Below are positions 19,379-44,154 of a DNA stretch of 64,000 nucleotides, one piece after another; position 1 is the stretch's first letter, and each line of letters opens with the position of its first letter. This DNA comes from an uncultured Acidimicrobiia bacterium. GTDB lineage: Bacteria; Actinomycetota; Acidimicrobiia; Spongiisociales; UBA11373. Location of the stretch: assembly GCA_963796115.1 (NCBI GenBank), contig CAWCKE010000005.1, forward strand, positions 564,505-628,504, read 5' to 3'. Under the pieces are notes generated by a model. The model was not told the DNA's origin. It worked only from the letters and a program-made list of their open reading frames with translations, and ran no database searches. The position numbers were made by a program, and so were the translations under genes.

Positions 19379-19401
19379 GGGCCCGTCTCGTCCCACAGAC
19401 A

Positions 19402-19433: not shown

Positions 19434-19455
19434 CCAGAGTGTGTCGATCGCCGGC

Positions 19456-20832: not shown

Positions 20833-21081
20833 GGAGACTCCCTTCGGAGGCGTGACGGGATTGGGCGCTTCCCTGATCGGCCACTGAGGCTAGCCGATCA
20901 GAGAGGAGCGAACTGGCATGGAGATAGGCGGCGTTGCCCCCGGTGGGCGGCGCGGCGCCGGCCGTTGCGATCGGGAGGCCGGCGGCGCGGGTCGAGCCCG
21001 GCCCACCCGCCGAGGCCCCACGCCGACGAGCCGGAACCCTCGGGCCCCGGCCCGCGCGGCAGGTTGCGCGAAGACTCGGCG

Positions 21082-24616
<3,535 letters not shown>

Positions 24617-24662
24617 CCTCGGGAATCCGCAACCGGCCGCTGGTACCCTCAAGGGCCGGCGC

Positions 24663-24736
24663 GGGCGCTTAGCTCAGGTGGCTAGAGCGCTTCCCTTACA
24701 AGGAAGAGGTCGCAGGTTCGAGTCCTGCAGCGCCCA
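24663..24736 (+). tRNA. tRNA-Val (anticodon TAC)
   Basis: Hand-folded cloverleaf: acceptor GGGCGCT/AGCGCCC, D arm GCTC-AGGTGGCTA-GAGC, anticodon arm CTTCC-CTTACAA-GGAAG, variable AGGTC, T arm GCAGG-TTCGAGT-CCTGC, discriminator A. CCA is not encoded. Confidence 0.9.
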
Positions 24737-24737
24737 C
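24687..24737 (+). repeat. attL: the 3' 51 nt of tRNA-Val, identical to 38921-38971
   Basis: gcgcttcccttacaaggaagaggtcgcaggttcgagtcctgcagcgcccac matches the second copy 51/51. Flanking bases differ on both sides. Confidence 0.85.
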
Positions 24738-24738
24738 C

Positions 24739-24768
24739 GAGAAACCGCTTGTCGACAAGGGGTTTCTC
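24739..24768. other. 30-bp near-perfect palindrome immediately inside attL
   Basis: gagaaaccgcttgtc|gacaaggggtttctc has 14/15 complementary arms. It could be a tRNA terminator supplied by the island or a recombinase/accessory-factor binding site. Confidence 0.4.
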
Positions 24769-24804
24769 TCCGGTGGGGGAGCGGGATCAGCCCTGCGAGG
24801 CCGC

Positions 24805-25230
24805 TCAACCCCACGCCAACCCCACAGCCCGGCCGCTCATGACCTGGTCGAGGGCGTCGGCTGCGGCCTCGTCGAGGCCCTGGAGCAGATGCCCGTAGGT
24901 GTCCAGGGTGGTTCTGATCGAGGCGTGGCCGAGCCGCCCCTGGATCACCTTCGGGTGCTGGCCGGAGGCGATGAGCATGGCGGCGTGGCTGTGCCGAAGG
25001 TCGTGGAACCGGCAGGGTTCGCCTACCGAGGCCCGGACGGCCGGTGCCCAGTAGCGGTGCCGGAAGTTGGCGGCCCTGAGGGGACCTCCGTCGGCTGCCG
25101 GTGAAGACGAGGCCGTCCTTGCCGGGCGGGTAGGCCGCCAGGTGCCGGGCGAGTTCATCGACCAGGGCTTTGGGAACGGCTACCGCACGGACAGAGGCTT
25201 TCGTCTTGGGAGGCCCGTAGTGGACCCCCA
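24805..25230 (-). pseudogene. Tyrosine recombinase (phage integrase family), catalytic domain only
   Basis: PKTKASVRAVAVP (catalytic Arg box) ... FHDLRHSHAAMLIASG ... LGHASIRTTLDTYGHL (HxxR and catalytic Tyr). There is no N-terminal core-binding domain; the frame upstream reads into a TM/SH3-like module instead. One frameshift near 25070. Confidence 0.75.
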
Positions 25231-25536
25231 GTCCAAGGAACCCAACAGCGGCCAGGGTGACCAGAACGACGAGGAACGCTGTGACCGGATGACCCAGCCG
25301 CCCGGCGACAGCGAACGGCACCCAGCCCCGATGCCCCGACAGGCCCTCAGCCAGCACCCAGTACCCCGAGACCTCGACGGCCATGTAGGTGTTGCCCTTG
25401 CCCAGGAGGGCGATCTCCTGGTAGGTGTCGGGGTCCAGGACAGGCACCGACCGGGCGGCCCTGAACCGGAAAGGGGTCACTGGCACCCGACCGTTCGGAC
25501 CCCCGCCCTCAGGTGTCCACGGCGGCGGCACCGGCA

Positions 25537-26089
25537 TCACCGCTCCCCTTCCCCGTCCGGCCCGGGTTGGGCGGGCTGGAGCCGATCCTCGGCCACCCAG
25601 CCGGTCACGCCGTCGGCTGTGGCGACAAACACCTGCGTCCCGGTCCGCCGCACCTCGGCCACCACGGTCCCGCCCGCCATCGACCGGATGATCTCGCCGC
25701 CCATGCCGCTGCGCAGGTCCGCCCCCCGGCTCGGCGACAGACCAGAACGGACCGTCACCGTGGCCGTCGTAGCGCTCCAGGTCCCGGCCGCAGGCGGGGC
25801 AGCGCTCCCTTCCCCACCTGACCAACCGGCCGCAGGCGGGGCAGCGACGCCGCCCGACCCGACGCCCACTGCCCAAGACCACGGCCCACCACAGACCACC
25901 GAAGAGAACGAGCGGGGTCAGGATCAGCGGCAAGAGGATGACAGCACCCGACCCAGCAGTGTCCCGCTCGCTGAAAGCGTGCAGGGCGGGACTAAGGACG
26001 CAAGCCACGACGCCGGCGGCGGTGCACAACAGGGTCACCAGCAGAACGAGACCCGCAGCCCAGGGATGCTCCCGCCGCTCACCGCTCAT
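25537..26089 (-). CDS. Membrane protein with internal CPxCG zinc ribbon and C-terminal SH3-like module (array member A); one frameshift
   Basis: MSGERREHPWAAGLVLLVTLLCTAAGVVACV...LILTPLVLFGGLWWAVVLG...RCPACGRLVRWGRERCPACGRDL...WSVAEPG, then ADLRSGMGGEIIRSMAGGTVVAEVRRTGTQVFVATADGVTGWVAEDRL in ORF 25537's frame. Its start overlaps the end of member B. Confidence 0.55.
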
Positions 26090-26762
26090 CTGCACCCCCA
26101 TCACGGTCCGGCCTGGGTGCAGAAGGCTTCAGTTGATCCGCAGCCACCCAGCCGCTCAGTCCCTCGGCCGTGGCGACCAGGACCCGGCTGCCCGCCCGCC
26201 ACACCTCGGTCACTACCGTCCCTCCGCTCAGATACGCCCAGGGCTGGCCCCTCCACAGCCGCTGCTTCAGGTCGGCCCCCGGCTCCGCCACCGCCCAGGT
26301 CGGCCCGGTCCGCCCGGCGAGGCGACGCCGGAACCAGCCACCCTCGTGATCGATGCTGAGCCGCCAGGCGAACCAGAGGCCGCCCAGCACCACCAGGGAC
26401 AGACCCACCACCCAGGCGATGGCTTCACCTTGCGATGTCCAAGTCTCCGGGCGGCTGGAGTCATACGACAGGGTCGTCTCCACTGAGACCAGGAACCCGA
26501 CCGCCCCCACCAGGCCCACGGTGATCAGGACGACCAGCAGGGCAGCAACCGGGGAACCCCCCCGATCCCGCAGGAGCACGGCCGCCCCCAGACCCAGCAG
26601 GCTGGCGACCGGGAGGGCCACCTGGGCCGTCCTCCCCATCCAGGACGGGTACTGCCAGTTCAGGATGTCGGAGGACGGCAGTCCCAGCCACGCCACCCAG
26701 AGCAGGGCCGCCATCACGAACAGGATCACGGCCACCGGATGACCCCGCCGGGCCTTGCCCAT
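26079..26762 (-). CDS. Four-TM membrane protein with C-terminal SH3-like module (array member B); intact
   Basis: 227 aa from ATG 26762 (RBS GGAGGGGG). Four hydrophobic segments, then WAVAEPGADLKQRLWRGQPWAYLSGGTVVTEVWRAGSRVLVATAEGLSGWVAADQL, which is paralogous to the C-terminus of member A. Confidence 0.6.
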   Translation of the reverse strand: MGKARRGHPVAVILFVMAALLWVAWLGLPSSDILNWQYPSWMGRTAQVALPVASLLGLGAAVLLRDRGGSPVAALLVVLITVGLVGAVGFLVSVETTLSYDSSRPETWTSQGEAIAWVVGLSLVVLGGLWFAWRLSIDHEGGWFRRRLAGRTGPTWAVAEPGADLKQRLWRGQPWAYLSGGTVVTEVWRAGSRVLVATAEGLSGWVAADQLKPSAPRPDRDGGADER

Positions 26763-26781
26763 GAGCACCCCCTCCAACGCC

Positions 26782-26830
26782 GGAACGCTACGTCGCCCCC
26801 GGGCCTGGCCGGCCATCCGGCAACACCCGG
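26782..26830. repeat. Conserved upstream motif, copy 1 (5' of member B)
   Basis: ggaacgctacgtcgcccccgggcctggccggccatccggcaacacccgg is near-identical to copy 2. Confidence 0.6.
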
Positions 26831-26844
26831 ACCCGGTCACGGCT

Positions 26845-27300
26845 CTACCGCCAGACACTCTTGCGGCAGTTGGGGCATCGGATCGTCTCCCGGCTGATCG
26901 GCTGCCCGCAACGAGGGCATGGGATGGAAGCCTCCGGGGGAGGAGCGGCCCCAGGTGTGGGGTGGCTCGTCCCCGGTTCGACCTCCTCCCAGAGGTGGCC
27001 CACCTCTGCGAACAGCCCCGGTCCGGGTCGGCCACGCCTTCCCCGCACCGCACTGACCCACATTGCGGCCAGGACAATGTCGCCAATCACCCAAACGATG
27101 ACCGAGAACCCGATCAACGCGGCCTCCACGAGGCCCTGGTTCCCCCCCGTGCAGGTCATGTAGTTGCCGAACGGGCAGTCGATCGCCCGGTCGTAGGCGG
27201 CCCGCAGGTACAGGAACCACACCAGCATGGCGGTGTTGAAGGCCACCGCGACCAGCAGCCACGGTAGGGTCCCAGCCCGCCACTTGCGCACCACGCACAC
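26845..27300 (-). CDS. Membrane protein with C-terminal zinc ribbon (array member C); intact
   Basis: 151-aa ORF. TM segments LPWLLVAVAFNTAMLVWFLYL and ALIGFSVIVWVIGDIVLAAMWV. C-terminal CPRCGQPISRETIRCPNCRKSVW. Confidence 0.6.
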   Translation of the reverse strand: MCVVRKWRAGTLPWLLVAVAFNTAMLVWFLYLRAAYDRAIDCPFGNYMTCTGGNQGLVEAALIGFSVIVWVIGDIVLAAMWVSAVRGRRGRPGPGLFAEVGHLWEEVEPGTSHPTPGAAPPPEASIPCPRCGQPISRETIRCPNCRKSVWR

Positions 27301-27313
27301 CCCCTCTCATCCG

Positions 27314-27360
27314 GGAACGCTACGCCGCCCCCGGCTGCCCGGCCATCCGGCAACCCCCGG
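27314..27360. repeat. Conserved upstream motif, copy 2 (5' of member C)
   Basis: ggaacgctacgccgcccccggctgcccggccatccggcaacccccgg. Confidence 0.6.
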
Positions 27361-27388
27361 AGAGGGCCCCCTGCCTGGCGCCGCGGGC

Positions 27389-28650
27389 TCACCGTTCGCA
27401 CAGGTTCTTCCGGCAGTGGGGGCACCGGGTCATCTCCCGGTTGGTCGGGCTACCGCAGCGGGGGCGCCAGGGGAGCCGAGCCGAGCGGGACCCATCGGCG
27501 GGCCCAGCCGGAAGTCGACCTCGCCGATCCTACGCGGAGCCAGCCTGGACCCAGTGCGGGGAGGCAGTCGGGGCGGCGTCCGGGCGGCAGGGGCAAGCAT
27601 GACTGAGCGTTGCTCCACCCACCCGGTGTGACCGTCCGGGGTGGTGACCTTGGTCGGCACCCAGTACAGTCGATCCGCAGCCGGTTGGCCTCACGGGGCT
27701 GACGGGGACCGCAGCCCCTCTCGGCGGGCTGCGGTCGGGCCATACAGCGGCCGTCCACCGGATATTCCTCGTTCGCGTCGACCGCAGGCCCGACGAGGTG
27801 GCCACGCGCAGGCACGCCCGGCCGCGGCTGCAGCGGCCGATCCCGCGGGCGGCGAATCCCTCTGCCTCGGCCGCCCGGGCCATGGTCGCACTCGAAGTGA
27901 CCATCGGGGTGTGCCCGGTCGAGGAGGCCTGCATCAGCCGCGGTGGGCTGCTGCTCTCCACGCGCACGGCAGCGACCGCCCGCGACGAACAGATCGACGC
28001 CACGGGTCGGAATCGACGAACGCTGGTCGCCTCACCCGGCTCGACGGCGCCGGCCCAACCGTCGGCGGGCAGTCCGTGCTCCGCACGGTGCAGACCGTGA
28101 AGAGGCCGACAGCCGAGAAGCGATGAGCCCAGAAGATGAAGCCGACCACGTCCGCCAGCACGCCGACCCCACACCGCCCGGGAACGGCCGCTGGGCGACC
28201 GGATACCAGCGTCCACAGCCGCCGGCTCCACCCGCGACCAGCCAGGCTACCGGGCCGAGGACAACGAACGGCCGGAGGCCGACGTCCATCCGGCAGCACC
28301 AGCGACCCCGGCCTCTTCGACCCGGGGAGTTGGCAGGCGGGTGGGGGCGGCGGACACACCGCCGGCAGGGGGAACAGCCGGCGCGGGCGGCAGGGGCGGG
28401 CAGGTCCGCGCGCCGGTCTCCGGGCGGTGGAGGGGCCAGAGCCACCAGCAGGCCGCCGACGCGCTCGACGCCCGGCACGATCGCCGCCAGGGCCGCATCC
28501 CGACGGCTGACCGCCGAGGTCGGGTCCGCAGCGAGGGACCCATGGACGGCCAATTGGGCCATCAACCGGTCCGCAGGAGGCGACCATCCCGGGGACAAGG
28601 CGATGGATGGACGCCGTCGCCGGACTACCCGACGCTAACCGCCCTTCACG
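27389..28650 (-). pseudogene. Degraded array member(s) D: TM segments, SH3-like module and terminal zinc ribbon, scattered over three frames
   Basis: The 3' end reads ...YWVPTKVTTPDGHTGWVEQRSV... and RCGSPTNREMTRCPHCRKNLCER* (stop at 27389-27391), paralogous to the tail of member C. Upstream are the TM-like segments RPFVVLGPVAWLVAGG and ADVVGFIFWAHRFSAVGLFTV. I could not reconstruct a continuous frame. Confidence 0.35.
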
Positions 28651-28663
28651 ACCCGCTCCCACG

Positions 28664-28700
28664 GGAACGCTACGCCCCGCCGGAGCGCCCGGGCGGTCCC
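28664..28700. repeat. Conserved upstream motif, copy 3 (partial; 5' of member D region)
   Basis: ggaacgctacgccccgccggagcgcccgggcgg shares the GGAACGCTACGYC core with copies 1 and 2 and diverges afterwards. Confidence 0.45.
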
Positions 28701-28862
28701 AGCGGCCCCGATCTGCAGCCGAGGAGGCCAGTCCCGTCCTGGGCGACTACACGGGCCTGTGCGGGCTTCTGGTGACGCTTCTGCATCGGCAGGGGGCCTT
28801 GGAGCCGCATATAGATGACGCTATGCTACAAAGCGTCGCTAAGCGACATCTGGAGGACTCCG

Positions 28863-29509
28863 ATGCCATCCCGGCCCGCCATCACCACCAAGGGCTACCA
28901 CCGGGGCCGCACCCCGGCCAACAAGGGCCTGCAACGCTACCCGGCGGAGGTGCTCACCCCCGACGAGGTGCGGGCCTTGCTAGCCGCCTGCTCCAACCGT
29001 GCCCCCACCGGGGTGCGCAACAGGGCCCTGATCGCCGTCCTCTACCGGGGCGGGCTGCGGCTCGGGAAGCGCTGGCCGTCGATGCCCAAGGACCTGGACC
29101 CGGTCCAGGGGACGATCACCGTCCTGCACGGCAAGGGCGACCGGCGCGGACGGTGGGCTTCGACCCCGGAAGCGATGGCGCTGGTGCTGCGCTGGGCTGG
29201 ACCGGCGCAAGGCCCTCGGCATCGACGGCGGCGCAGGCTGTTCTGCACCTGGACGGCAGGCCGCTGAAGCCCTCCTATGTCCGCACCCTGCTGCCCCGGC
29301 TGGCCGCCAAGGCCGGGGTCGAGAAGCGGGTCCACCCGCACGGCTGCGCCATGCCCATGCCGCCGAGCTCATGTGGGAGGGGGTGCCGGTGCCGATCATC
29401 CAGCGGCAGCTCGGGGCACGCCAGCCTGGCGACGACGGACAGGTACTTGCGGTCGATAGCTCCGGCGGATGTGGTGGCGGTGATGCAGGCCCGTACCTGG
29501 CAGCCCTAG
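28863..29509 (+). CDS. Small tyrosine recombinase (XerC/D-like, about 215 aa); about 3 frameshifts as assembled
   Basis: MPSRPAITTKGYHRGRTPANKGLQRYPAEVLTPDEVRALLAAC...GVRNRALIAVLYRGGLRLG (Arg box) ...TITVLHGKGDRR... / RVHPHG.. / IIQRQLGHASLATTDRYL (catalytic Tyr). Pieces are in ORFs 28815..29267, 28607..29509 and a third frame. Confidence 0.75.
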
Positions 29510-29763
29510 GCGCAGAAACCGTCGGGGAGGGTAGCCGCGGAGGTCGGGGCGGGGATCCGCACGCCGCAGCAGACCAGCGAGGGATGACCGTGTGTTGCGA
29601 GAAGGCTACCGAGTGAGAGGGCCCGCCCACGACATGCCGGGGGGGGTGGCCCTGCCCATCGCGTCCGCCGACGCTGAGTCGTCGGGCCAGTCGAACCATC
29701 CCGCTGGCGGGTAGATCTCCCCGATCCAGCCCCACCCTTCAAGGGAGCGCAGCTAGCTCCGTG

Positions 29764-30822
29764 TCACCGCCCTGGAGGGCGTCGAACACTCGTCGGTCGT
29801 AATCGACTGTTCCCCGGAGCAACTGGCAGTAGGCGGAATTGGCTCCGGAGCAGGCGTCTCCGGGAGGGATGTCCTCCACGGTGTTCTCGGTGACATGCTG
29901 ACCGGGCACACCCGGCCGACCGAAGCACCTGGGTCGGCGTCAGTTCAGCGAGGAAGACCACTCCTTGCCTGCCTGTCCGGAAACGCTGCTCCCACTCCTC
30001 CCCGCAGCCATCAAACGGGACCTGCCGACCGGTGAGCGAGATGACCATCATCCCTGCGGTTGCCACCGGAGGGTCGACGGATGCGGCGTAACGCTGTCCG
30101 ACGACGAACTCCCCTTCGACAACCTCACTGCCCTCCTCAAGGACCGAGACCCGCACCTTCCAGAACCCGAGGTTCCACTCCCCCAAACGCGACCCCCTCC
30201 GACGGCACCTCCACGAGGGTCGGGGGCGCCAGCACCCGGACCGAAGATGAGGCCAATCCGTTCATACAGGCTGCCGTCATCGAAACGTACCTCGTGCTCG
30301 GCGGTGTGGCTGCCCGGTAGCGCCGCCTCGTGGCACCACTCCGCTGTGGTCTGCGAGAGGCCGAGCGTCGTCGAGGCAGTCGTCGTCGGTGGGAAGGTGC
30401 CGGTGGTCAGGTACGGCTCCCACTCCGCCCACCCCTCCTCAGCCCGGGCGATGATCGTCTCCACCTGATCCACCACCCCCGCCCCCTGCCAGCGGCCCAG
30501 CACCTCCCCCCCGAAGCGGGACAATCACCGTCGGCGTGCGGGTGATCGTCTCATCCGCCGGACGAACGAAGAACGGAATCTTCCCCGACCAGCACCTCCA
30601 GGGTCGTCTCCAGCGCCGGGGCACTGGGCGCAGCCCCCGCCAATGCAGGATGATCCCGTCCAGGGCGGAGGCGGGCACAGTCGTCGTGGTCGTCGTGCTG
30701 CTGGCCGTTGTCGTCCTCGTCGGGGCAGCCGTCGCGGACGGGGCCACGGTCGTGGTCTCCTCCGCTGCTTCCGTGCAGCCGACCACCACCACGGCCAGGA
30801 GCAGGATCAGGAGCAGGCGCAC
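29764..30822 (-). CDS. Hypothetical lipoprotein (island cargo); several frameshifts
   Basis: MRLLLILLLAVVVVGC|TEAAEETTTVAPS..., a Thr-rich linker, then RFGGEVLGRWQGAGVVDQVETIIARAEEGWAEWEPYLTTG...HEVRFDDGSLYERIGLIFGPG, then GEWNLGFWKVRVSVLEEGSEVVEGEFVVGQRY... in ORFs 30439.., 30048.. and 29764... Confidence 0.45.
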
Positions 30823-30844
30823 GGGGCGAACCTACCCCGCTCGT

Positions 30845-31279
30845 TCAGGACCGGCAGGAGGCGGGGGCGTGGGCCAGCGCCAAGCACACCTGCTCGATGA
30901 AACCGTCCAGGTCGTCGAGGACCGCCGGCCGGTCCACGGGTCCCCGTAGCACCCGGTGCTGGATATCGAAGAGGAACACGGTCGGGGCAGTGTCAACCTC
31001 CAGATCCCCGGCCTCCTCACTAGCCAGATCGACCTGGCGGAGCGGCAGATCGGAGCAGCGGCGGACGGCGGCCAGCACCTGGTCACACAACTCGCAGTCG
31101 GCTTCGACCACCACGCGTGAAGCACGCAGCGGGGCAGCCAGCGACCACTGGGTCAGATTCCAGACAAGGAACACCCACCCGTGGCCTTCCGGCAGCTCCA
31201 CATCCTCACCGGACATCTGGGCCAGCAGGGCCTCGTTGCATTCGGTCACGGACCCGTGGTAGCGCATGTAGTCCTGCAT
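30845..31279 (-). CDS. Hypothetical protein with a CxxC, glutaredoxin-like C-terminal half
   Basis: Intact 144-aa ORF. RVVVEADCELCDQVLAAV...PTVFLFD...RGPVDRPAVLDDLDGF resembles the glutaredoxin-like (DUF836-type) pattern. This is a weak call. Confidence 0.45.
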   Translation of the reverse strand: MQDYMRYHGSVTECNEALLAQMSGEDVELPEGHGWVFLVWNLTQWSLAAPLRASRVVVEADCELCDQVLAAVRRCSDLPLRQVDLASEEAGDLEVDTAPTVFLFDIQHRVLRGPVDRPAVLDDLDGFIEQVCLALAHAPASCRS

Positions 31280-31303
31280 TCCCTGCCTCGTCGCTCCTCC
31301 GTC

Positions 31304-31865
31304 TCATCGAGTCAGTGGCGTTATGCCACTCCTCTTCGGCGAGGGGGCAGGGAGCGTCGGGGCACGCAGACCAGGTGAAACGATTCGGCAGATCGATGGC
31401 GTACGCCCAGCCAGGCTCGACACCGTGATATGTGCAGCCCTCCACTCACCGCCGTGGAGCAGCACATCGATGTCCAGGTGCCGGAGAAGGCGCTGCCCCA
31501 CTCGCCCCCGGTGCTGCAGGAGGTGTGGGATGGGGAAAGGAGTCGCCGCCCAGGTACATCTCGCCAATCACCGGTTCACCCGTGGTCGGGTTGTCCCCGC
31601 AGAAGTACGCCGACACCATCCATGGCCACCCCGAACACCACCCGCTCCACGCCGGGATCTGACAGGCTTTGGCCAGACCACCGACAGTGACGGGTCGCTG
31701 TTCAATCTCACGGGACATGCCGCCCACATAGGCAAGATCGCCGTACCAGGACAGGCGCCTCCCCGACGGCGGCTCTGCAAAGGTCAGCAGGCCCAGGACC
31801 CCCTTGTTGCCCGCCCACAGGTAATTCGCCAGAGGGCGGACGCTGCCACCGACCCCGCCGGGCAC
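31304..31865 (-). CDS. Hypothetical protein (island cargo); frameshifted, boundaries uncertain
   Basis: Protein-like pieces: LANYLWAGNKGVLGLLTFAEPPSGRRLSWYGDLAYVGGMSREIEQRPVTVGGLAKACQIPAW...FCGDNPTTGEPVIGEMYLGGDSFP, then VEGCTYHGVEPGWAYAIDLPNRFTWSACPDAPCPLAEEEW. Confidence 0.35.
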
Positions 31866-31874
31866 GCCTCCGGA

Positions 31875-32117
31875 TTACACGCCGGTCCCAGCCCGCTCAC
31901 CGGCATCGGGTCCGCCGTGAACGGGTCCAAGAGAGTGGTCGTTGTTGTGGGCGAGATGGTCGTGGTGGTCGTGCTTGTCGTCGCACTGCTCGTCATCGTG
32001 GTCGTAGGTGCTGTTGTTGTCGTGGACGGAGGCAACGGTCGTGGTGGTCTCCGCCGCCTCCTGCGTGCAGCCCGCCGCCAGCAGCCCCAGCAGGATCACG
32101 GCTGCTGCCCGCCTCAT
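31875..32117 (-). CDS. Small lipoprotein with a His/Asp-rich tract; paralogous leader to the 30822 lipoprotein
   Basis: MRRAAAVILLGLLAAGC|TQEAAETTTTVASVHDNNSTYDHDDEQCDDKHDHHDHLAHNNDH.... The leader plus GCT(Q)EAAETTT matches the gene at 29764-30822. It may be the N-terminus of the 31304-31865 ORF if the TAA at 31875 is an assembly artefact. Confidence 0.45.
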   Translation of the reverse strand: MRRAAAVILLGLLAAGCTQEAAETTTTVASVHDNNSTYDHDDEQCDDKHDHHDHLAHNNDHSLGPVHGGPDAGERAGTGV

Positions 32118-32640
32118 CGCCACCTCCAGTGCCGACGCTACACCGGGCACCGGGGCCGTGGTCGAGGTGTGCCGGCCCGCACCTGGGCGGCGTGAGCGGG
32201 GCGCAGAGGTCGTTTCTTTCGTAATAGGGGTCTATATCTCTTCTTGTTAAGAAGAAAGGTCTCTGCCCCGGCGTGGGTGCCACCGCCACTGGTGACGGGC
32301 AGCCGCAATCGCAGAAGTCCCCCGGGAACCTGGCCGCCCGGACGGGTTCCTGTTCGCCGCAGCGGACGAGCTGGGGATGTCGCGCGGCGGTGCCGCTCAG
32401 GGGAGGGTGTGGAGGCCGTCCTCATCGCTGTACCAGACGGTGCCGTCGGGAGCGACATCGATCGCCCCGACCGCTTCCCTGCGATATGAGTGGCCTACTC
32501 GGTCCCGTCGAAGGAGGCCAGGTTGTCGCCAGCGACAAACCACGCCACCCCGTCTGAGCTCTCATCCCCTGACGGTTGGGTGTAGGGTCCGGCTGTGGGA
32601 CTTACCAGGGAGGCGGTCGGGCCCACTGAAGGGGGGAGTC

Positions 32641-35600
32641 ATGAAACGCGTGCTTGCACTGCTGTTGTTGGTTGTGCTGGGGTTCGGGCTGATGCCGGGG
32701 GTGGGCGTCCGCCGATGCTCCGGGTTCGATTTCTGGGAGGGTGGTGGAGGAGGGGACCGGGGGATCCTCTCGAGGGTGTCATCGTCGATGTGGGGTGGGG
32801 CGTCGGGACCGGCATCACCGGCCCCGACGGGCGGTACTCGGTCGGGGGATTGCCGGCGGGAAACCACACGGTGGACTTCTACCCCGCAGATGGCTTGCAC
32901 GGCTACCCCTTGGACATCTTCCATGTGGATACAACGTGGGTTGGGCTTGTGGCCGTCACCGCAGGGTTGGACACGTCGGGGATCGACGGGGTACTTCCGC
33001 TCGTGGTTGGATCTCGGGACGGTGGTCGACGAGGGGACCGGGGACCCTCTCGAGGGCATCTACGTTGTTTCCTGGTGTGGTGCCTACGGCGTCGGCGTCT
33101 TCTCGCAGGCCGACGGCGGATACTGGATCAGGGTTCCGGCCGGTGACTGCTCGGTTGGGTTCTACCCCCAAGGGCCAGGCGGGGGAACCCCGTCCCCGTA
33201 TGCGGGTGAGTGGTGGAACAATCGGCCGACCTCTGGTTCTGCGGATCTTGTGGCTGTCACCGCATGGGTGGAGACGTCGGGGATCGACGCGGCTCTTTCG
33301 TTCGCGGGTTCGATTTCGGGGACGGTGCGGGACGCCGACGGGAATCCCATCGAGGGCGTCGACGTAGGGGTTTGCGACAGCGGGTACTGGTGCCAAACGT
33401 GCTCACGGATGCCGGTGGGTACTACGAGGTCACGGGGTTGGAGGCGGGGGATTACAGGGTGAACTTCACTCCGGGTAGCCCGGCGTTCTTCTCCGAGTGG
33501 TGGGATGACAAGCCGGGCTTCGGTTCCGCGGAGCTTGTCGCCGTGGTTGGGGGCGCGAACACGGTGGTCGACGCGGTGTTGTCCTCTCCGGGTTCGATTT
33601 CGGGGAGGGTGGCCGACGAAGCGACCGGGGATCCTCTCGAGGGCATCTATGTCAAGGCCTTCTGTTGGGAGGATCCGCGTTGTGGCGACTCCGGGGCCGA
33701 GGGCTGGACGAATGTCAACGGCGAGTACTCGCTGGTAGGGCTTCCGGCCGGGAACTACCGGGTGGGGTTCGGCCCTCAAGGGCCGAATGGGACATCCCGT
33801 CCCCGTACATGGCTGAGGAGTGGGATGGGCTTGCGGCTGTCACCCCAGGGGTGAACACGTCGGGGATCGACGCAGCACTCTGGATCCCGGGTTCGATTTC
33901 GGGGACGGTGGTCGCGGAAGGGACCCTGCTGCCTGTTGCTGGTGTCTCGATGTCGGAGTGCTGGACAGCTCGTGCGGTCTGCGTACCTGGGGAGCGGGGA
34001 GACGGATGCGGATGGGAGGGTACGTGGTCGGGGGCCTGCCGGCGGGGACCTACAAGGTGGCGTTCTACCCCGATGGGCTTTCCCCGTTCGTAGACGGAGT
34101 GGTGGGATGACAAGCCGGACTGTGCTTCGGCGGATCCCGTTACGTGGTTGATCGGGTGTGGATACTGCCGGGGATCGCGCGTCGCTCGGGCGGGACTCCG
34201 ATGCTCCGGTGGTGTTCGTGCCTGATGATGTGACGGTGCAGGCGACCGGTCCGGCGGGGCGGTCGTGGAGTTCCCGAAGGCGGCGGCGTTCGACGGTCCG
34301 GGAGGGTGTGGGAGCACACTGAACTTCCAGTTCGGCGAGAACCGTCTGGTGCGGAACCCGGGTTCGTACAACGAGCACATCGAGTACCGCAGGGCGGTGG
34401 CCTATGCTATCGACAGGGACGCCATGGTCGAGGCGCTTCCCGGGGCGGCGCTCGCCTTGGACTCCTACGTTGAGGCGTACCTGCCGGACTGGTCGCAGGG
34501 CTCGTGGGCGCAGTACGACTACGACCCGGACATGGCCAGGTTCTGGCTGGGCGCAGCTGTGCGCCAAGGGGTGGATTGTGTGGCGAATCCGCCGAAGGCG
34601 GTGTTCACCACCTCAAACAACCCCGATCGGGTTGTCATGGCTGGGTTGTTGGCGCCGATGTTCGCCGATGTGGGGATCGGCTTCGAGGCCCAACTCGAGG
34701 ACTCCTCGCTGTTCTTCGGCGACACCATGTCCTTCGGCGAACTGGGACCTCGGCGAGTGGGCGTGGGTCGGGACCGTGGCGGATCTGCCGGGCCTGGTGT
34801 GGATCCACGACCTGTGGGATCCGGAAGCCCCTCCGCCGGACGGCCAGAACTACTACCGCTGGGGCACCCCGGAGGTGACCGGCCAGGACCCGGACGGCTA
34901 CAACCAGGGGCCGTCGTCGGTCATCGACGAGCACACCGCCCGCTTCGCGCAGATTGTCGACCTGATGCACGCCACGACGGATGAGGCGGAGCTGCGGCTG
35001 CTGGTCAACGAGGCGGAGAACATCCTCGCCGACCAGCTGGTGTTCATCCCGCTGTACGTCAGGGTTGATCCGAGAGTGGTGTCGGGGCCGACGTGCTGAT
35101 CCGGCGTCGGGATCGCTGTTCCCCGTCGGGGTGACCACGGTGACCTGCACCGCCACTGACCCTGCCGGCAACGAGGGTTCAGCCACCTTCACCGTGACCG
35201 TGACCCCTGACGGGCGAGGGGACCTGGTCGCAGGTCGCTGCAGGTGGCACGGTGTCGACGGACGGTTCCGGTGACGGCGCGACCCCGGAGATCCGGTGGA
35301 GACATCGATCACCACTCCGAACGCGGGGGCAGTGACCGTGGCGACGGGCCCGACCGGGGCGGACCCGACCGGGTACGCGCTGTTCGGCCAGGAGGTCACG
35401 ATCACCGCTCCGAGCGCCACCCCGGCGGAATCCGCTGGTGTTGGTGTTCCTGATCGATTCGTCGGTGGTGCCGGCTGGGGCGAGTGTCGGTGATGTGGTG
35501 GTGTTCCGTGACGGCGTGGCCGTGGCGGACTGCACCGGTGCACCGTCGGCGGTTCCAGATCCGTGTGTCCTCGCGGGCGGTCGCCGGTGATGACTTCAAG

Positions 35601-36426
35601 ATCACGGTGTTGACCTCGCACGCCTCCGCTCTGGGCGTTCGGGGTGCGCCAAGACACCACTCCGCCCGTCATCAGCCTGCTGGGCCCGCCGTCGGTGTTG
35701 CTGGCGGTGGGTAACCCGTATGTGGATGCGGGGGCGGCAGCCTTCGACCTCGTGGATGGTGATCTGACCGGCTCGTATTGTCAGGGTGAACCCGGTGAAC
35801 ACGGCGGTGCCGGGCACGTACCTGGTCACCTACAACGTCACCGACGCTGCGGGCAATAGTGCGGTGCAGGTGACCCGGAGGGTGGAGGTGGCCTACTTCT
35901 GTGGTGGTCTTAGGGCCACCATCTGGGGCACCCCGGGTGGCGACAGGCCTCGTCGGGACGGGCGGTGCGTCTGTGATCGTGGCCCTAGGTGGGCGGGACA
36001 CCATCTTCGGCCTGGGCGGCAACGACACCATCTGCGGCGGGCCGGGCAACGACACCATCAACGGCGGGGCCGGCGCCGACACCGTCGACTTCGGCGGGGC
36101 CCCCGGCGGGGTAAACGCCAGCCTGGCCGTCGGGATCGCCACGGGTGAAGGCTTCGACGTGCTGGTCGGCATCGAGAACATGATCGGGTCACCGTTCGGC
36201 GACACCCTCACCGGCAGCGGGGGGCAACATCCTGTGGGGTGGCGGCGGCAACGACTGGCTGTGGGGCCTCAACGGGGACGACACCCTCTACGGGGAGGCC
36301 GGCAACGACTGGCTGTGGGGCGGCGCCGGCCGGGACATCCTCAACGGCGGCCCCGGCACGGACCACCTCGACGGTGGTGCGGGCGCCGACACCTGCACGC
36401 TGGGGGAGGTCAACAGCAGCTGCTGA
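32641..36426 (+). pseudogene. Very large mosaic surface protein: signal peptide, about 5 carboxypeptidase-regulatory-like repeats, split HYR domain, DUF5011-like Ig domain, RTX repeats; many frameshifts as assembled
   Basis: The RBS GGGGGGAG is followed by the start MKRVLALLLLVVLGFGLMPG. A repeated unit occurs several times: GSISG.V.DE.TGDPLEG..V......G.Y.V.GLPAG.Y.V.F.P.......EWWD......A..V.V......GIDA.L. The HYR domain halves lie at about 34196-34300 and 35100-35200. A DUF5011-like Ig segment reads QDTTPPVISLLGPPSVLLAVGNPYVDAGAAAFDLVDGDLTG...VPGTYLVTYNVTDAAGNSAVQVTRRVEV. The RTX repeats read GGRDTIFGLGGNDTICGGPGNDTINGGAGADTV...GGGGNDWLWGLNGDDTLYGEAGNDWLWGGAGRDILNGGPGTDHLDGGAGADTC. The TGA stop is at 36424-36426. 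Confidence 0.65.
34300..35100 (+). other. Diverged fragment of a family-5 SBP (C-terminal lobe) embedded inside the HYR domain of the large surface protein
   Basis: WEH.LNFQFGENRLVRNPGSYNEHIEYRRAVAYAIDRDAMVEAL...YDYDPDMARFWL...GVDCVANPPKAVFTTSNNP...MFADVGIGFEAQLEDSSLFFGDT...WDLGEWAWVG...YYRWGTPEV...ARFAQIVDLMHATTDEAELRLLVNEAENILADQLVFIPLY aligns colinearly with residues from WEHLAFQFGENRL to IPLYQR of the 22745-24616 gene. By eye, nucleotide identity is roughly three quarters over the first 110 nt. Confidence 0.65.
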
Positions 36427-36710
36427 GGGCTCAGCGAGACGGCGATGTGGGCGGCCCGAACGAGGCCTCCAAGCCGTCGGTCCTGCGGGTGGCTTCGGGA
36501 CCAGACCTGCCGAACCGGTGCTGGTTGGAACCGAATGCTCGGTGGGAGCGGATCGGCTGGGTTCCAACTCAAGGGCTAGGTTCCTCGGGCCAGGTTCTCG
36601 TTGAGGCCCGGGCCGGACCCCCCCGACGGGTGTCAGCCCCGGCGAATCTCACCCTCTCTCCCAGGTGCTGTCGAGTGTCTGCACTGCCTGTGTCGGCTAG
36701 GTGGACAGCC

Positions 36711-36815
36711 GGTGAGACAGTGAGACGGATGAGACACCGGTTCCGGAACTTGGCCTAGGAGGCCGCTAGGGGCCGATTGCCGGGAGGGCCGTCTCGGCTG
36801 TCTCGCTGTCTCACC
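36711..36815. repeat. 105-bp inverted-repeat element with triplicated GAGAC/GTCTC motifs
   Basis: Left arm ggtGAGACagtGAGACggatGAGACacc (36711-36738). Right arm ccGTCTCggctGTCTCgctGTCTCacc (36789-36815). The terminal 10 nt are perfectly complementary. The centre contains the palindromes gttccggaac and cctagg. Confidence 0.6.
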
Positions 36816-36871
36816 CGTCCCCGGGGCTGGGCGGCGCCTAGGCTCCTCGCAAGGGATTCCAGGGGGTTGGG

Positions 36872-38602
36872 GTGAGCGAGCTGCGGTTCTGCCCGTCCTG
36901 CGGTGTGGAGTTGGTACCCGGGGCACGGTTCTGCGCCTCCTGCGGCCGCCAGTTGGTGGAGGAGGCCCCGGCCAAGGCCCGACGGGGTGGGCCGCCGATG
37001 TGGGTGTGGGGGCTGGTGGGGCTGGCGGCGGTGGCGGCTCTGGCGGTGGTGCTGGTGCTGGTGCTGGGCGGAAGGGGACGATGACGGGCCGTCGGACAGC
37101 GGGGTGACCACGACCTGGGCTGGCGATGAGGGGGCGGCTCATGCGGTGCTGGCTGACGGGACGGCGGTGGCCGGGCTGACGGCCGGGGAGGCCGGTCAGC
37201 GGCCCCGGCGGAGGGGCTGGACGCGGCGGTGGCGGTGGGTGACTTCTACCTGTTTGAGGCGCCCACGACGGGGGGGCCGGTGACGGTGGTGGTGCCGTTC
37301 GACCCCGGCCTGGTGCTCCGGACGAGTCGGGGGAGGAGCCGGTGGTGTTCGCCGCCTACTGCGACGAGACGGAGGGCGGTGGGTGCCGATGGTGGGGGAG
37401 GTGGACTGGGCGGCGGGGACGGTCACGGTGGAGACGGATCACCTGTCCTGGTGGGAGGAGTGGACCTGGGACTGGGGGAGCTGGGCCAGCAGATCGCTGA
37501 CGGCATCCGGGAGTACTTGCAGGGGGTGGGTCTGCCGGTGCCGGAGCAGCCCGTCTGCGAGGAGGAACCTCCTGCCGGGGTGGAGGTGCTGGTGGTTGAG
37601 AGGTCGCTGGTGGCGGCCTGCCCGGAGGCGGCCGGGGATCAGGTTCGGGTGAAGGTGGCGAACCAGCGGGGCTACGGGGTGCTGCTCGACCTGCCTGACG
37701 GGGTGGTGGAGGAGGATTCGGCCCCGGGGTCGATGCGTTCTCGGCTGTACACCTGGGTGGCCTCCAAGCTGGACCCGGGTGTCGTCTATGTGCCGCCGGT
37801 GGGGACCACCTCCCTGCTGGTTGACATGGCCGGGCGGAGCGAGGTGACGGTGGGGGTGGAGCCGTCGGAGGCGACCCTGGTGGCCGACTTCCTGTGGACC
37901 CTGTGCCGGACCACCAACGGGGTGTGCGCCGCCATCGGTGAGGGGGAGGCAGTGGCAGACTGCATGCTCAGCGCGGTGCAGCGGGGCGGGGCGGAGGCCG
38001 ACTTCCAGGGGCTGATGGCGGCGGCCGGAGACTGCACCTCTTCCGTGCTCCCCGGAGGCCGACTGGTGTTCGCCGTGGCCAGCGCCGCCAGCGCCTGGGT
38101 GGGGGTCTACGAGTACCTCGGTGACTGGATCACCGGCATGACGCACAGCCTGACGGTCACCTATGAACCGTTCCCCCCCGGTGCCCAGGACGACATCCCA
38201 TCAGTTCCGCTGGAGGACCCTCCCGACAAGCTGAGCGTCGGGGGGCTGTCGGCGCTGAGCAGTCTTGAGGAGAACTTGGCACTGCTCGCCGACTGGCCCT
38301 ACGAGGTCATCAGGGAGACTCAAGGCTTGGGCGAGTGGAACGACGTCTATGTGTGGGACTTCGGCGGGACGGCGAGCGTGACCATCTATGGAGGAGTGGT
38401 CTCTGCCTGGTGCTCGAAGGTGGCCGAGTGCCGTTCGCCGAGATGGACCAGCCGACCGGCGAGAAGCTCAAACGCTTCGACGAGCGGCTCGAGCGGGAAG
38501 CTCGGGTACGAGTACCCGAAGAAGACGATCGCCTTCCTCGCCCCCAGCGCCGAGGCGGCGAGCTTGGCGCAGTCGGTGACCGCCGAACGGTGCTGCGGGT
38601 AG
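36872..38602 (+). CDS. Zinc-ribbon / single-TM protein with a large extracytoplasmic domain; about 3 frameshifts, 3' end uncertain
   Basis: MSELRFCPSCGVELVPGARFCASCGRQL, then the TM segment MWVWGLVGLAAVAALAVVLVLVLGG, then ...AVGDFYLFEAPTTGGPVTVVVPFDPGL... and the long ORF 37229..38602. The last 200 nt or so are antisense to the better-supported 38386-38895 gene and are probably not coding. Confidence 0.5.
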
Positions 38603-38895
38603 GGGAGAGGATGTGGGTGGGCAGGTTGTCGTTGGGCTTGTTGTTGTCGCCCATCATGCGGATCATCTTCACCTCGACCGCCCAGTCCCAGCTCGGCGGG
38701 GTGCCGAGGCACAGGTCGCACTTCTGGCGGCTCCCGTCGGCGTAGGGGACACCGAGCTGGTGAGCGGCGTAGCGCTCCGGCCAGGCGGCGACCAGCTCAT
38801 CCATCACCGAGGGAGACGGTGAGCGGCTCAGTGTGCGGTCCCAGGCCCGGCTGGTAGGGGCCGTGCTGGGGGCGTCGGGCGTCGGCCAGTTCCAT
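38386..38895 (-). CDS. PD-(D/E)xK nuclease-like hypothetical protein at the attR edge; about 2 frameshifts
   Basis: ...DELVAAWPERYAAHQLGVPYADGSRQKCDLCLG....WDWAVEVKMIRMMGDNNKPNDNLPTHILSPYPQHRSAVTDCAKLAAS..GARKAIVFFGYSYPSFPLEPLVEAFELLAGRLV. A D...E-V-K arrangement, with GC-rich third codon positions throughout. The frame stays open upstream into the attR repeat. Confidence 0.5.
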
Positions 38896-38920
38896 GCCGC
38901 GAGCGAAGTCGGCGGCGATC

Positions 38921-38971
38921 GCGCTTCCCTTACAAGGAAGAGGTCGCAGGTTCGAGTCCTGCAGCGCCCAC
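38921..38971 (+). repeat. attR: orphan copy of the 3' 51 nt of tRNA-Val
   Basis: 51/51 identity to 24687-24737. It lacks the 5' half of the tRNA. Confidence 0.85.
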
Positions 38972-39310
38972 TCTCAGGATCCCGTGTCCCTCAAGGGGAT
39001 TCTCTTAGCGGCTGGGGAGTGGGGTCACCGGAAGAGCACGCGACCAGGGCACAACCGGAGGACAGGAGCACTGTCCCGCCGATTGTCCAGGCACCGATGT
39101 CCACGGTCCATCACCTGCCAATGAATATCGGCTGTCGGGGGCTGGCGGCCTGAGCGTTGACTGGCCCTACTGACAGGGAGAGCCCGTGGCCCGACACCGT
39201 GAACCGAGGGCCACGATTCTCAGAGCTGATCCGCGACGTGCTGACCCGGCACGGCGGGAAACGGTGGAGTAGGTTGTTCGCAAGCGACGGGGGTAGCGAA
39301 GGGAGGGGTC

Positions 39311-40143
39311 ATGAGACGCCTAGTTGTGCTGCTGGCAGTGATGGGGATGGGGCTGCTGCCGGGAATCGCGTCGGCTGGGTCCCACACCTACCAGTCGGGG
39401 CCTATCGCCGTGCCGATCCCGGATCTCAGCACGGTCTTCCACGACATAGTCGTTCCCGATCGTGGGCACATCAGCGACCTCAACGTGTCGGTGACGCTCA
39501 ATCACACCTTTGTCTACGACCTAATCGTGATGGTCACCCATGTCGACACGGGCACGCAAGTGATCCTCGCCAACCACGACTGTGGCTCCGAAGACAACAT
39601 GTCCGCACGGTCTTCGACGATTCGGCCACGGCTGCGGTGGGAACCATCTGTCCCATCTTTGGCACCTTCCGGCCGGATACCCCGTTGAGTGGGTTCAACG
39701 GCGAGGCGATGGGTGGCACATGGCGCCTGACTGTGCAGGATGCGGTAGGAATCGACTCGGGTACCCTGACCGGCTGGAGTCTGGCCTTCGAGGCCGGCAT
39801 CGGGAGGAAGACCTGCTTGGGCGAGGCGGCGACGATGGTCGGGACCAATGAGGCGGACATCCTGATCGGCACGGCCGGCCCGGACGTGATAATCGGGGCG
39901 GGCGGTGACGATGTCATCCGAGGACTCGGTGGCGACGACGTGATCTGCGGCGGGTACGGCAACGACCGGCTGCTGGGGGGTGGCGGGGACGACCGCATGC
40001 TGGGTGGCGACGGGTCGGACACTCTCTTCGGTAGATGGGGAGACGACTGGCTGGGCGGCGGCAGCGGCGCCGACGTGGCCAATGGCGGGGGAGGTACCGA
40101 CCGCTGCGTGGCCGAAGCCGAAACCGCCTGCGAAACCTCCTAA
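39311..40143 (+). CDS. Secreted proprotein-convertase P-domain + RTX-repeat protein; one frameshift near 39600
   Basis: Signal peptide MRRLVVLLAVMGMGLLPGIASAG. P-domain ISDLNVSVTLNHTFVYDLIVMVTHVDTGTQVILANHDCGSEDN / FDDSA...GTFRPDTPLSGFNGEAMGGTWRLTVQDAVGIDSGTLTGWSLAFEA. RTX repeats GTAGPDVIIGAGGDDVIRGLGGDDVICGGYGNDRLLGGGGDDRMLGGDGSDTLFG. Confidence 0.75.
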
Positions 40144-40241
40144 CTCCGAGCGACAATGAGGTGCCCCGCACCAGACCGGTGCGGGGCACCCTCGATCATC
40201 GGCTAGGCAGTAGTTCCGGGTCTACTGGGCGAGCTGGTGGT

Positions 40242-41031
40242 CTAGCCCCGCTCCTCGGCGAGGGTGTCCAGGCGCCCTGCCGGCTCCTTGGTCGGCTCGG
40301 AGGCCGCCTCCAGCAGGTCCCCGAAGGTTTCCGGGTCGGGTTTGCGGCCCTTGGCCCTGTCGGCCCTGGTCCGAGCCCTGTCGGTGTCGATGGCCGCCTT
40401 GACCTGCTCCTCGGGCGGCTTGTCAATCTCCGGGGGGCCAGATCTCCGGGTCGATCCACCCCGGCGAGGGCGGCTTCATCACGTCGGGCAGCTTCGGCTT
40501 GGGATTCCCCAGGGCCACCCATAAGCCGATGCCGTGCCGGGTCAGCTCCTCCTCGATGGTTGCCCGCTGAATCCCCGAGAGGTTGGTCCAAGCAGCCCCC
40601 GAGCCGGGTGAATACATGACGAACCGATCCTTGTTGGCCCACTCAGCCCGGCGCTGGTCTTCAAGCTCCTTCCGCTTGCGGGCCGACACTCCGAGGAACG
40701 GTTCACTGCCGGTGACCGCCAGGTGCTGCCCGGCGTCCCAGCGGCGTGCGTCCAGGGTGGCGCAGACCTCCTGGCCGTCGGGACGCACCGTGATGAAGCC
40801 CCAGCGGGGGGTCATCTCGGACCCGTCCGGCTCTTCCCAGGCCTCGGTCAGGAGGGCTGTGCCTCGAGTCGCCTCCAGCTTGAAGATGCGCCTGCGACCC
40901 CGGTCGAAGGTGGCCACTGCCGTGTAGGCGACATCGGATCCCAGGAGCCGGTGGATCAGGCTCAGGAACTCCACGCCCTGAGGGCTGACCCCGATTGAGT
41001 CGAGCGTCGGATGCTTGCGGGTCGGTTTCAC
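40242..41031 (-). CDS. Hypothetical protein with a charged C-terminal tail; one frameshift near 40440
   Basis: VKPTRKHPTLDSIGVSPQGVEFLSLIHRLLGSDVAYTAVATFDRGRRRIFKLEATRGTALL...RWGFITVRPDGQEV...NKDRFVMYSPGSGAAWTNLSGIQRATIEEELTRHGIGLWVALGNPKPKLPDV..., then EIDKPPEEQVKAAIDTDRARTRADRAKGRKPDPETFGDLLEAA. I recognise no family. Confidence 0.45.
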
Positions 41032-41338
41032 CAAGCACGCTCTCCCCGTCCCCCCGACCCTACACCCGGGCCCCGGGGTTGGCAGCCCCGCAGCGGCCTT
41101 CAGGCGGCCCTTGGCACAAGCCCGAGCGCGGCTCGGCCGACGAGAGGTCGCCCGTTCGACCGCCGTGGGGCTTTGGGACCCCGTGCGGAGGTCCCACCGC
41201 ATGCCCGCCGGGGCTGCGGGCGCCCGGCGGCGAGGTCGGTGGCCGCTTTCGGCGCTGAGCCGCAGGCCACCCGCCGCGGCGGTCGGCGTAGCGTGAACGG
41301 CACGGTGCCCGGCCCGGGCGCCCGGAGCGGGAGGTGCG

Positions 41339-41899: not shown

Positions 41900-42030
41900 C
41901 TCCGGGGGCGCCGTCCATGCCTCGCCCTGCACCGAACCGGCGAGCCGGGCCCGTCGATTCGTGAGGTGAAAGATCGCTTCCGCTAGTAGCGCAGACCTCC
42001 ATATCGTGTCGTCCAGCAAAGGAGACACGC

Positions 42031-44048: not shown

Positions 44049-44154
44049 GGCGCCACCTTTGCGTCGAGTGCTCCGCGGCAGGCTAAGACCCTCGCCGGCA
44101 CCAGGCAATACGTCGTGGACGGGGAGGGACTGGCGGCCCGGGGCCCCGGCGCCG

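Follow-up and report, generated by a model that had tools for sequence, protein, structure and literature searches.

We analysed a stretch of 64,000 nucleotides (nt) from an uncultured Acidimicrobiia bacterium (contig CAWCKE010000005.1, positions 564,505 to 628,504), hereafter the window, whose G+C content is about 72%. The region considered here begins at a tRNA-Val(TAC) gene, the only tRNA gene that ARAGORN finds in the window, which lies to the right of a gene for an ABC-transporter binding protein of the SBP_bac_5 family (hereafter SBP; 22745-24616). All relatives of this SBP gene come from metagenome-assembled Acidimicrobiia or Actinomycetota. Beyond the tRNA gene lie the remnant of a tyrosine integrase, a series of mostly broken surface and membrane genes and, 14.2 kb downstream, a second copy of the last 51 nt of the tRNA gene. 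An earlier note on this DNA had described the segment between the two copies as an island integrated at the tRNA gene. We consider here the structure and extent of this region and its probable origin, using related contigs and loci (designated by L numbers) for comparison.

The two copies of the repeat are identical at every position, as the earlier note had reported. The match is direct and on the same strand and stops with these 51 nt on both sides; over 100 nt the flanks of the copies agree at about 30%, no more than background. No other exact direct repeat in the window is as long: the next in length, of 31 and 28 nt, fall within a tandem duplication. When a 32-nt sub-pattern was searched for with as many as 3 mismatches allowed, it matched the two repeat sites only, and 100 shuffles yielded no match. 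The repeat runs from 10 nt ahead of the anticodon to the base after the discriminator, spanning the anticodon stem-loop, the variable loop, the T arm and the 3' acceptor strand. Around the downstream copy Rfam calls a partial tRNA (38902-38962; 40 bits, model positions 9-63 of 71), and the complete upstream tRNA is 100% identical to that of L072, a strain that lacks the island. A directly oriented 3' fragment of a tRNA gene is the principle by which tRNA-gene (tDNA) islands are mapped (PMC4383910), and this combination of an apparently regenerated tRNA with a displaced 3' fragment bears out the view that the two copies, here termed attL and attR, carry the signature of integration into a tRNA 3' end. 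The terminator-like hairpin directly 3' of the tRNA is element-derived, and hairpins like it also follow attR and the tRNA of the related contig L061.

Eight JGI metagenome contigs contain the 51-mer, in each case (8/8) within a complete tRNA-Val, and a search of viral contigs gave no match; the island itself has no match among plasmids by megablast. Excision would be predicted to leave an attB junction, the tRNA end joined to TCTCAGGATCCC, and an attP junction in which the 51-mer stands between ...GGCGGCGATC and CGAGAAACCGC. The tRNA 3' end has no further copy in the window. One candidate for a decayed third att copy, at 41143-41159 (15/17 nt), scored 24 against a background maximum of 27 and was rejected.

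The integrase remnant, which the earlier note had correctly placed 68 nt from attL, reads towards the tRNA gene, and its stop codon lies at that distance from the end of the repeat. The ORF (open reading frame) at 24805-25179 matches PF00589 over profile positions 101-168 of 172 (E 1.9e-11). A tblastn search of the window with the integrase of L061 aligned residues 273-368 at 92% identity and residues 230-273 at 86% in a second frame, the frame change being due to one extra base at 25093 (+1), which neither L061 nor L065 has. The remnant comprises 139 codons, residues 230-368 of a 368-residue enzyme, and the same search found nothing upstream of residue 230 in the window. With the N-terminal 229 residues the remnant has lost both its SAM-like and its central domain, as well as the first catalytic Arg. 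At 25225/25226 the stump is joined to a membrane-protein gene.

Intact versions of this integrase are present in relatives. In L061 (JGI Ga0316622_100003819) and in L065 and L070 (ENA ERZ27266254, overlapping the sequence of L061), a 368-amino-acid integrase lies at the identical site, 68 nt after the same tRNA and on the opposite strand. It possesses SAM-like, central and catalytic domains, matches phrog_1, and over 93% of its length shares 33-34% identity with integrases of Gordonia and Mycobacterium phages. Downstream of it L061 encodes a 557-amino-acid primase/helicase-like protein (phrog_19930, phrog_10537), and the module further includes a 74-amino-acid HTH_17 excisionase-like protein and a 101-amino-acid XRE repressor. 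These genes form a compact integrase/primase-helicase/HTH_17/XRE module of about 3.8 kb at tRNA-Val (stored coordinates 1127-4811 of L061 and 1-3580 of L070), a candidate for a small, satellite-like integrative element in Acidimicrobiia. Searches of the window with the L061 proteins by tblastn found no counterpart of the Rep-like, HTH_17 or XRE proteins.

Further evidence comes from a strain that lacks the region. A search with the hypothetical gene at 40426-41031, whose homologue P0140 is 95% identical in protein, reached the 3241-nt contig L072 (ENA ERZ27256988). Its first 2120 nt correspond to window positions 22623-24737 at 95.9% identity (97.3% in the SBP coding region). There follow 227 nt without coding potential that resemble nothing in the window, the flanks of its att sites included, and the last 894 nt of the contig then correspond to window positions 40408-41305. 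Beyond the tRNA a second contig, L064, agrees in sequence with L072. Hence a strain about 97% identical to that of the window lacks 24738-40407, with its left break exactly at the last base of the repeat, 24737. These two contigs remove the possibility, raised in the earlier note, that no relative shows an empty site. The empty site envisaged there, with the tRNA 3' end followed directly by 38972 onward, was recovered on its left side only: on the right the shared sequence resumes at 40408, across the 227 unrelated nt. The strain-variable block is therefore 24738-40407, reaching 1.4 kb beyond attR. Within its extra part, 39311-40143 holds a gene for a secreted protein with a proprotein-convertase P-domain and RTX repeats (PF01483, PF00353), with one frameshift near 39640.

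Table 1. Features of the region around tRNA-Val(TAC) and points at which homology with relatives resumes on the right (window coordinates)
Feature	Position	Strand	Basis or remark
tRNA-Val(TAC), intact; putative regenerated target gene	24663-24738	+	ARAGORN; Rfam RF00005, 72 bits, full length
attL identity block, 51 nt	24687-24737	+	51/51 identical to 38921-38971
Terminator-like hairpin directly 3' of tRNA	24739-24768	+	Palindrome, 20-nt arms, 95% complementary
Tyrosine integrase remnant	24805-25225	-	PF00589 and tblastn with L061 integrase
Three tandem paralogous small membrane proteins, zinc ribbon and/or SH3-like C-terminus	25226-27306	-	
No clear coding signal, about 1.5 kb	27.3-28.8 kb		
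Second, unrelated tyrosine recombinase, Xer-like, short, broken by frameshifts	28815-29509	+	
Small ORFs without family	30439-32150	-	Pfam: low-complexity matches only, or none
Secreted protein, CarboxypepD_reg / SdrD-B-like units of about 290-300 nt each	32377-34110	+	Three frames
SBP_bac_5 ABC-transporter binding protein fragment	34319-35081	+	Paralogue of flanking 22745-24616
Bacterial surface Ig-like and RTX calcium-binding repeat fragment, frameshifted	35786-36758	+	PF16403, PF00353; two overlapping frames
Rare zinc-ribbon/transmembrane/central-domain/SH3 family gene, split over three frames	36878-38602	+	
Frameshifted ORF at right end of island, reading away from attR	38386-38807	-	ORFs in two frames
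attR, putative displaced tRNA-Val 3' fragment	38921-38971	+	51/51 identity; Rfam partial tRNA
Extra segment right of attR, 1436 nt, missing from island-free strain	38972-40407	+	L072 comparison
Right-hand backbone, first sequence common with island-free strain	40408-41305	-	96.2% nt identity to L072
Right-side homology start, L072	40408		Left neighbour: 227 unrelated nt, then tRNA-Val
Right-side homology start, L068 (96% identical)	41185		Left neighbour: zf-dskA_traR gene
Right-side homology start, L061 and L070	41284		Left neighbour: integrase element
Right-side homology start, L069	~41397		Left neighbour: insertion sequence (IS) rve transposase

The direct repeats thus do not delimit the accessory region, because relatives resume at 40408 or at 41185-41284 and the compositional anomaly runs to about 44 kb; on this point the description of the island as bounded by the 51-bp repeats has to be revised. 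Tetranucleotide distance is raised from about 24 to 44 kb. Its peak of 0.30-0.35 at 30-38 kb, against 0.13-0.19 elsewhere in the window, falls inside the repeats and speaks for an integrated element; the anomaly continues past attR. Similarly, G+C is 0.68 both at 29.6-38.9 kb and at 38.97-43.6 kb, against 0.72-0.73 outside. The att-bounded segment is one part of a longer plastic region, and the variable zone, which reaches at least 40.4 kb, probably extends to about 41.2-44 kb.

The sequence downstream of tRNA-Val differs greatly among relatives. Besides the intact integrase module of L061 and L065, L058 has a far more divergent integrase stump of 41 residues followed by an unrelated gene, L059 has an integrase that is 65% identical, and L072 and L064 have nothing recognizable. 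In L073 a 45-residue integrase stump abuts the 3' end of the homologue of the 40426-41031 gene. The tRNA-Val(TAC) gene is a recurrent integration hotspot in this clade, since L058, L059 and L073 hold further divergent copies or remnants of integrases.

Some further observations concern the same site and its surroundings. Three independent short-read assemblies (L001, L066 and L067, from GTDB, NCBI and Logan) have contigs that terminate inside tRNA-Val, 22-26 nt into the 51-nt region, which suggests a repeat or strain heterogeneity at the site in those populations too. In L057 and L060 the last 23 nt of the tRNA and at least 40 nt of downstream flank are directly repeated about 135 nt downstream of tRNA-Val; this may be the scar of a T-loop-type integration and excision, or a local duplication. 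A scan of GTDB genomes based on the SBP gene yielded 56 loci, none with tRNA-Val beside the SBP homologue and most with tRNA-Leu or tRNA-Ser; the closest of these loci is L001, which ends inside the tRNA. Farther to the right, the secreted-protein and cupin genes at 41297-42393 stand in the opposite order in L061 (reverse complement of 9822-10912), and a 54-nt leader (41284-41337) precedes whichever of the two comes first, a local rearrangement beyond the island. The RTX secreted-protein gene at 42536-43222, also outside the repeats, is conserved in L068.

The cargo between the repeats was characterized by scanning about 45 ORFs of the island region one by one against Pfam. The earlier note had recognized no function in almost all of it; the scan identified SBP_bac_5, CarboxypepD_reg, Ig-like, RTX and zinc-ribbon/SH3 families together with a second integrase, mostly truncated or frameshifted. 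Next to the integrase stump, three tandem membrane ORFs (25226-26104, 26079-27086 and 26845-27300) show weak Zn_ribbon_3/DZR matches, all below the curated cutoffs, with transmembrane (TM) and SH3-like features read from the translations; they have no PHROG, PADLOC or NCBIfam family match. The first of them is frameshifted and fused to the integrase remnant, and the array contains a direct repeat, D5 (25545-25674 and 26096-26225, 74% identical). The PF00589 match of the second recombinase is divided between two frames, with profile positions 2-84 in the first and 100-167 in the other; its NCBIfam Xer-type matches are sub-threshold, and among plasmids it finds generic matches only, at 30-40% identity. 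The small ORFs that follow include two for Thr-rich lipoprotein-like products (30439-30822 and 31875-32150) and one of 144 amino acids (30845-31279).

In the right half of the island, the secreted protein at 32377-34110 has PF13620 and PF17210 matches in ORFs of different frames and carries repeat families D2, D6 and D9, and the Ig-like/RTX fragment carries the 27-nt repeat family D1. The SBP fragment corresponds to residues 334-588 of 623 and is 57% and 56% identical in amino acids to the flanking SBP in two frames (tblastn), with a single +1 frameshift, placed at about 34738 by comparison with L002 and L003. The longest intact ORF of the rare-family gene is 37460-38602 (380 amino acids), and a search of 1.84 billion cluster representatives gave only 13 relatives of its central domain at E<=1e-3. 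P0128 (772 amino acids), the best relative over the full length, comprises a zinc ribbon, a TM segment, a central domain of about 300 amino acids and an SH3 domain. Its residues 6-37, 109-229 and 229-461 align in different frames with 36878-36973, 37104-37475 and 37472-38185. The island gene lacks the C-terminal SH3, and the SH3 part of P0128 instead matches a right-flank gene at 45878-46366; the right flank at 45695-46879 holds a paralogue of this SH3 part. The ORF at 38386-38807 has no match in Pfam, NCBIfam, PADLOC or PHROGs, its joined translation included; its candidacy as a PD-(D/E)XK nuclease, which came from a D...EVK motif noticed by eye, found no support in these libraries and was dropped. 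Among the island ORFs scanned there is none for phage structure, conjugation, replication or defence. The cargo consists largely of broken copies of families encoded nearby on the host chromosome (SBP, RTX and SH3-type), and these recognizable, mostly broken families argue against the earlier expectation that this is the part of the window most likely to hold new biology.

The quality of the sequence bears on how this breakage is to be read. The window was compared with relatives that are 83-97% identical in nucleotides. Single-base insertions were found at 17243, 17465 and 19050 in genes that are intact elsewhere; against the 95%-identical contig L064 the added bases are all C and lie outside homopolymer runs, and they break two conserved flanking genes into three and two frames. 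The gene for glutamate dehydrogenase (GDH, ELFV) is represented by a 1.62-kb tandem duplication (18968-22944), its halves being about 86% alike. In six relatives the gene is single, and gene calls show it intact, with 453 amino acids, in three of them (L065, L066 and L067). Between 19.4 and 22.4 kb there are about 45 further indels relative to L064, mainly single-base insertions with deletions almost absent, and the GDH stretch looks more like unpolished or misassembled sequence than natural decay. Natural decay is not usually insertion-heavy relative to deletions, and some of the window's frameshifts may therefore be assembly errors. In contrast to the GDH stretch, the SBP gene, the 40426-41031 gene and the secreted-protein and cupin genes (41.3-42.4 kb) are clean of frameshifting indels against relatives that are 96-97% identical. 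To the right, the DUF6395 gene (43925-45490, minus strand) is in two frames split near 44480, with Pfam positions 3-86 in one ORF and 88-168 in the other. Since some of the frameshifts may not be real, we put weight on structural truncations and little on single frameshifts.

Direct observation covers the repeat, the integrase remnant, the presence of an intact homologue at this site in relatives and the lack of the region in a nearly identical strain, and the interpretation that we consider well supported is that the region is the decayed remnant of a mobile element inserted at the 3' half of tRNA-Val(TAC) by a phage-type tyrosine integrase. From these observations we infer the integration event, the position of its crossover and the order of decay. 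The attP of the element would have recombined with the 3' half of the tRNA gene through the integrase, in a crossover that was probably of the anticodon-loop type. The tRNA would have stayed intact because the element supplied a new 3' half (attL), the original one being displaced 14.2 kb downstream as attR. Subsequent deletions would have removed the first 229 codons of the integrase gene, fusing what was left to a membrane-protein gene, as well as the excisionase, repressor and replication genes seen in the intact relative. The interior, decayed or rearranged, would now be a patchwork of truncated or frameshifted host-like surface and membrane genes with a second broken recombinase. On this evidence the island is predicted to be no longer self-excising.

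Several observations weigh against such a history. The SBP, RTX and SH3-family cargo resembles neighbouring chromosomal genes, unlike the cargo typical of mobile elements. In the 4.9 kb available of L061 no attR of its element is detectable (nothing longer than 11 nt), and no relative showed the precise empty site, in which 38972 would come directly after the tRNA, 38972-40407 being likewise missing from the island-free strain. Problems of assembly quality exist outside the island, and the junctions are seen in assembled sequence alone. Furthermore, the integrase stump is 89.3% identical in nucleotides to L061 and the flanking SBP gene 88.6%; this equal divergence suggests long residence and an old, vertically inherited integrase, which is awkward to reconcile with a perfect attR. 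The perfection of attR could be due to a newer integration by a circulating element of the same family, to gene conversion from the tRNA, or to chance.

It is conceivable, if rather doubtful, that the repeats are not the bounds of one unit and that the accessory segment, from 24738 to about 40.4-41.2 kb or beyond, was built up from two or more elements, by accretion or as a tandem array; tandem arrays are a known pattern at tDNAs (PMC4383910). A similarly tentative form of this idea places 38921-38971 inside the composite, as the att site at which a newer island adjoins an older stump with a decayed attR. The whole block missing from L072, the three other points of resumption on the right, each with a different left neighbour, the integrase remnant abutting the 40426-41031 homologue in L073, the composition that remains anomalous to about 44 kb and the presence of two unrelated integrase fragments between the repeats would all be expected of a composite. 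Yet a third tRNA 3' end is absent from the window, the 41143-41159 match being no better than background, 38972-40407 holds no mobility gene, and the difference right of attR is possibly an independent indel. A composite origin is compatible with most of the data and does not exclude the decay of an integrated element.

Two other explanations turn on the quality of the sequence. That the two repeat copies and the sequence between or after them are not contiguous in any one genome, having been brought together by a chimeric assembly or a mis-join of co-occurring strains at the shared tRNA, is in our estimate quite improbable. The GDH duplication, with single-base insertions throughout both copies in place of the single copy of relatives, the additional +1 insertions in flanking genes, the three short-read assemblies that break inside the tRNA and the confinement of the attR junction to this dataset would suit such an artefact. 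Nevertheless, a join can switch only within the shared 51 nt, which means that the left part of attR is a real att-type junction somewhere; the integrase beside the tRNA is independently confirmed in other assemblies, and the coding regions beside both junctions are clean against relatives of 96-97% identity. It is likewise unlikely, if a little less so, that the frameshifts are sequencing errors and the cargo a functional set of intact, strain-specific surface and membrane proteins in an immobile island. Every frameshift that could be mapped against relatives (25093, 34738, 17243, 17465 and 19050) is a +1 insertion, single-base insertions dominate the GDH-region indels in a manner atypical of natural decay, and repeat-rich genes are the hardest to polish. 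Against this, the truncations are structural: besides the 229 residues missing from the integrase, the SBP fragment is without residues 1-333 and 589-623 and the P0128-like gene is without its SH3 part, and many neighbouring genes are free of indels. Sequencing error is possible for single frameshifts and cannot account for the truncations. Were most of the frameshifts errors nonetheless, the region might be a live strain-specific cell-surface cassette, which we think very doubtful. Such a cassette would comprise three tandem zinc-ribbon/TM/SH3-like membrane proteins, one fused in frame to the C-terminal half of the integrase, a large CarboxypepD_reg/Ig-like/RTX secreted protein and a member of the very rare zinc-ribbon-TM-central-domain family. 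The island would in that case mark a locus of surface variation in uncultured Acidimicrobiia, one that pressure from phages or grazers may have shaped.

Taken as the remnant of an integrated element, the region offers a mapped example of tRNA-targeted integration and island decay in Acidimicrobiia, a largely uncultured actinobacterial class in which, to our knowledge, few mobile elements have been described. The intact 3.8-kb integrase module of the relatives is experimentally testable. Beyond the hotspot and this module the biology is that of textbooks, the cargo, much of it broken, showing no sign of a new system; the island is of an ordinary, well-known kind in a poorly studied lineage. Given the insertion-type errors or lesions, gene-level inferences from the window require resequencing.

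Comparison with known systems places the region more precisely. Phage and element integrases of the type seen here commonly target tRNA 3' ends, and the intact L061 integrase has the same three-domain layout as those of the actinobacteriophages, such as Gordonia phage Schmidt and Mycobacterium phage Shaobing. The main ORFs matched integrase families only among the PHROGs, and genes for virion, packaging or lysis functions were seen neither there nor in the roughly 35 ORFs scanned with Pfam; as far as these ORFs go, the island is not a prophage. The actinomycete integrative and conjugative elements (AICEs), for instance pSAM2, share with it an actinobacterial host and integration at a tRNA 3' end, and with its intact relative an int-xis-rep module, but a transfer gene of the FtsK/SpoIIIE type or an AICE-type Rep occurs in none of the ORFs scanned. 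No defence-system protein was matched by PADLOC among six island ORFs and one flank ORF. The module of L061, L065 and L070 agrees with the window in the tRNA used, the 68-nt spacing and the orientation of the integrase, at 89-91% nucleotide and 86-92% amino acid identity; it is intact and about 3.8 kb long, whereas the window retains only the C-terminus of the integrase with 13.7 kb of unrelated sequence. As an excision-competent element the region is deficient on two counts, its integrase lacking residues 1-229 and bearing a +1 frameshift, and the excisionase-like, repressor and Rep-like proteins of L061 having no tblastn match in the window.

The closest parallel is with the tDNA islands of the Islander collection (Hudson, Lau & Williams 2015, PMC4383910), which likewise have an intact tRNA at one end, a direct 3' fragment at the other and a PF00589 match inside the interval, beside the tRNA, and for which 14.2 kb is a typical length. 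The identity block of the window starts at the anticodon stem-loop, as in their anticodon-centred 'A' class; the sublocation classes stem from Williams 2002, cited in PMC4383910. In the window the tRNA gene is intact and the cognate 3' fragment is direct and on the same strand. Two PF00589 matches exceed the Pfam cutoff (44.5 and 32.5 bits), neither gene being intact, and L072 and L064 lack the region, with a left break exactly at 24737 and, across the unrelated spacer, a right break at 40408 in place of 38972. It differs from these islands in its 139-codon integrase stump, in having no excisionase or regulator and in a variable block that runs 1.4 kb past attR. While the region does not qualify as an excision-competent mobile element, a prophage, an AICE or a defence island, it has the sequence features of a tDNA island, namely an intact tRNA gene and a directly oriented fragment of its 3' end.

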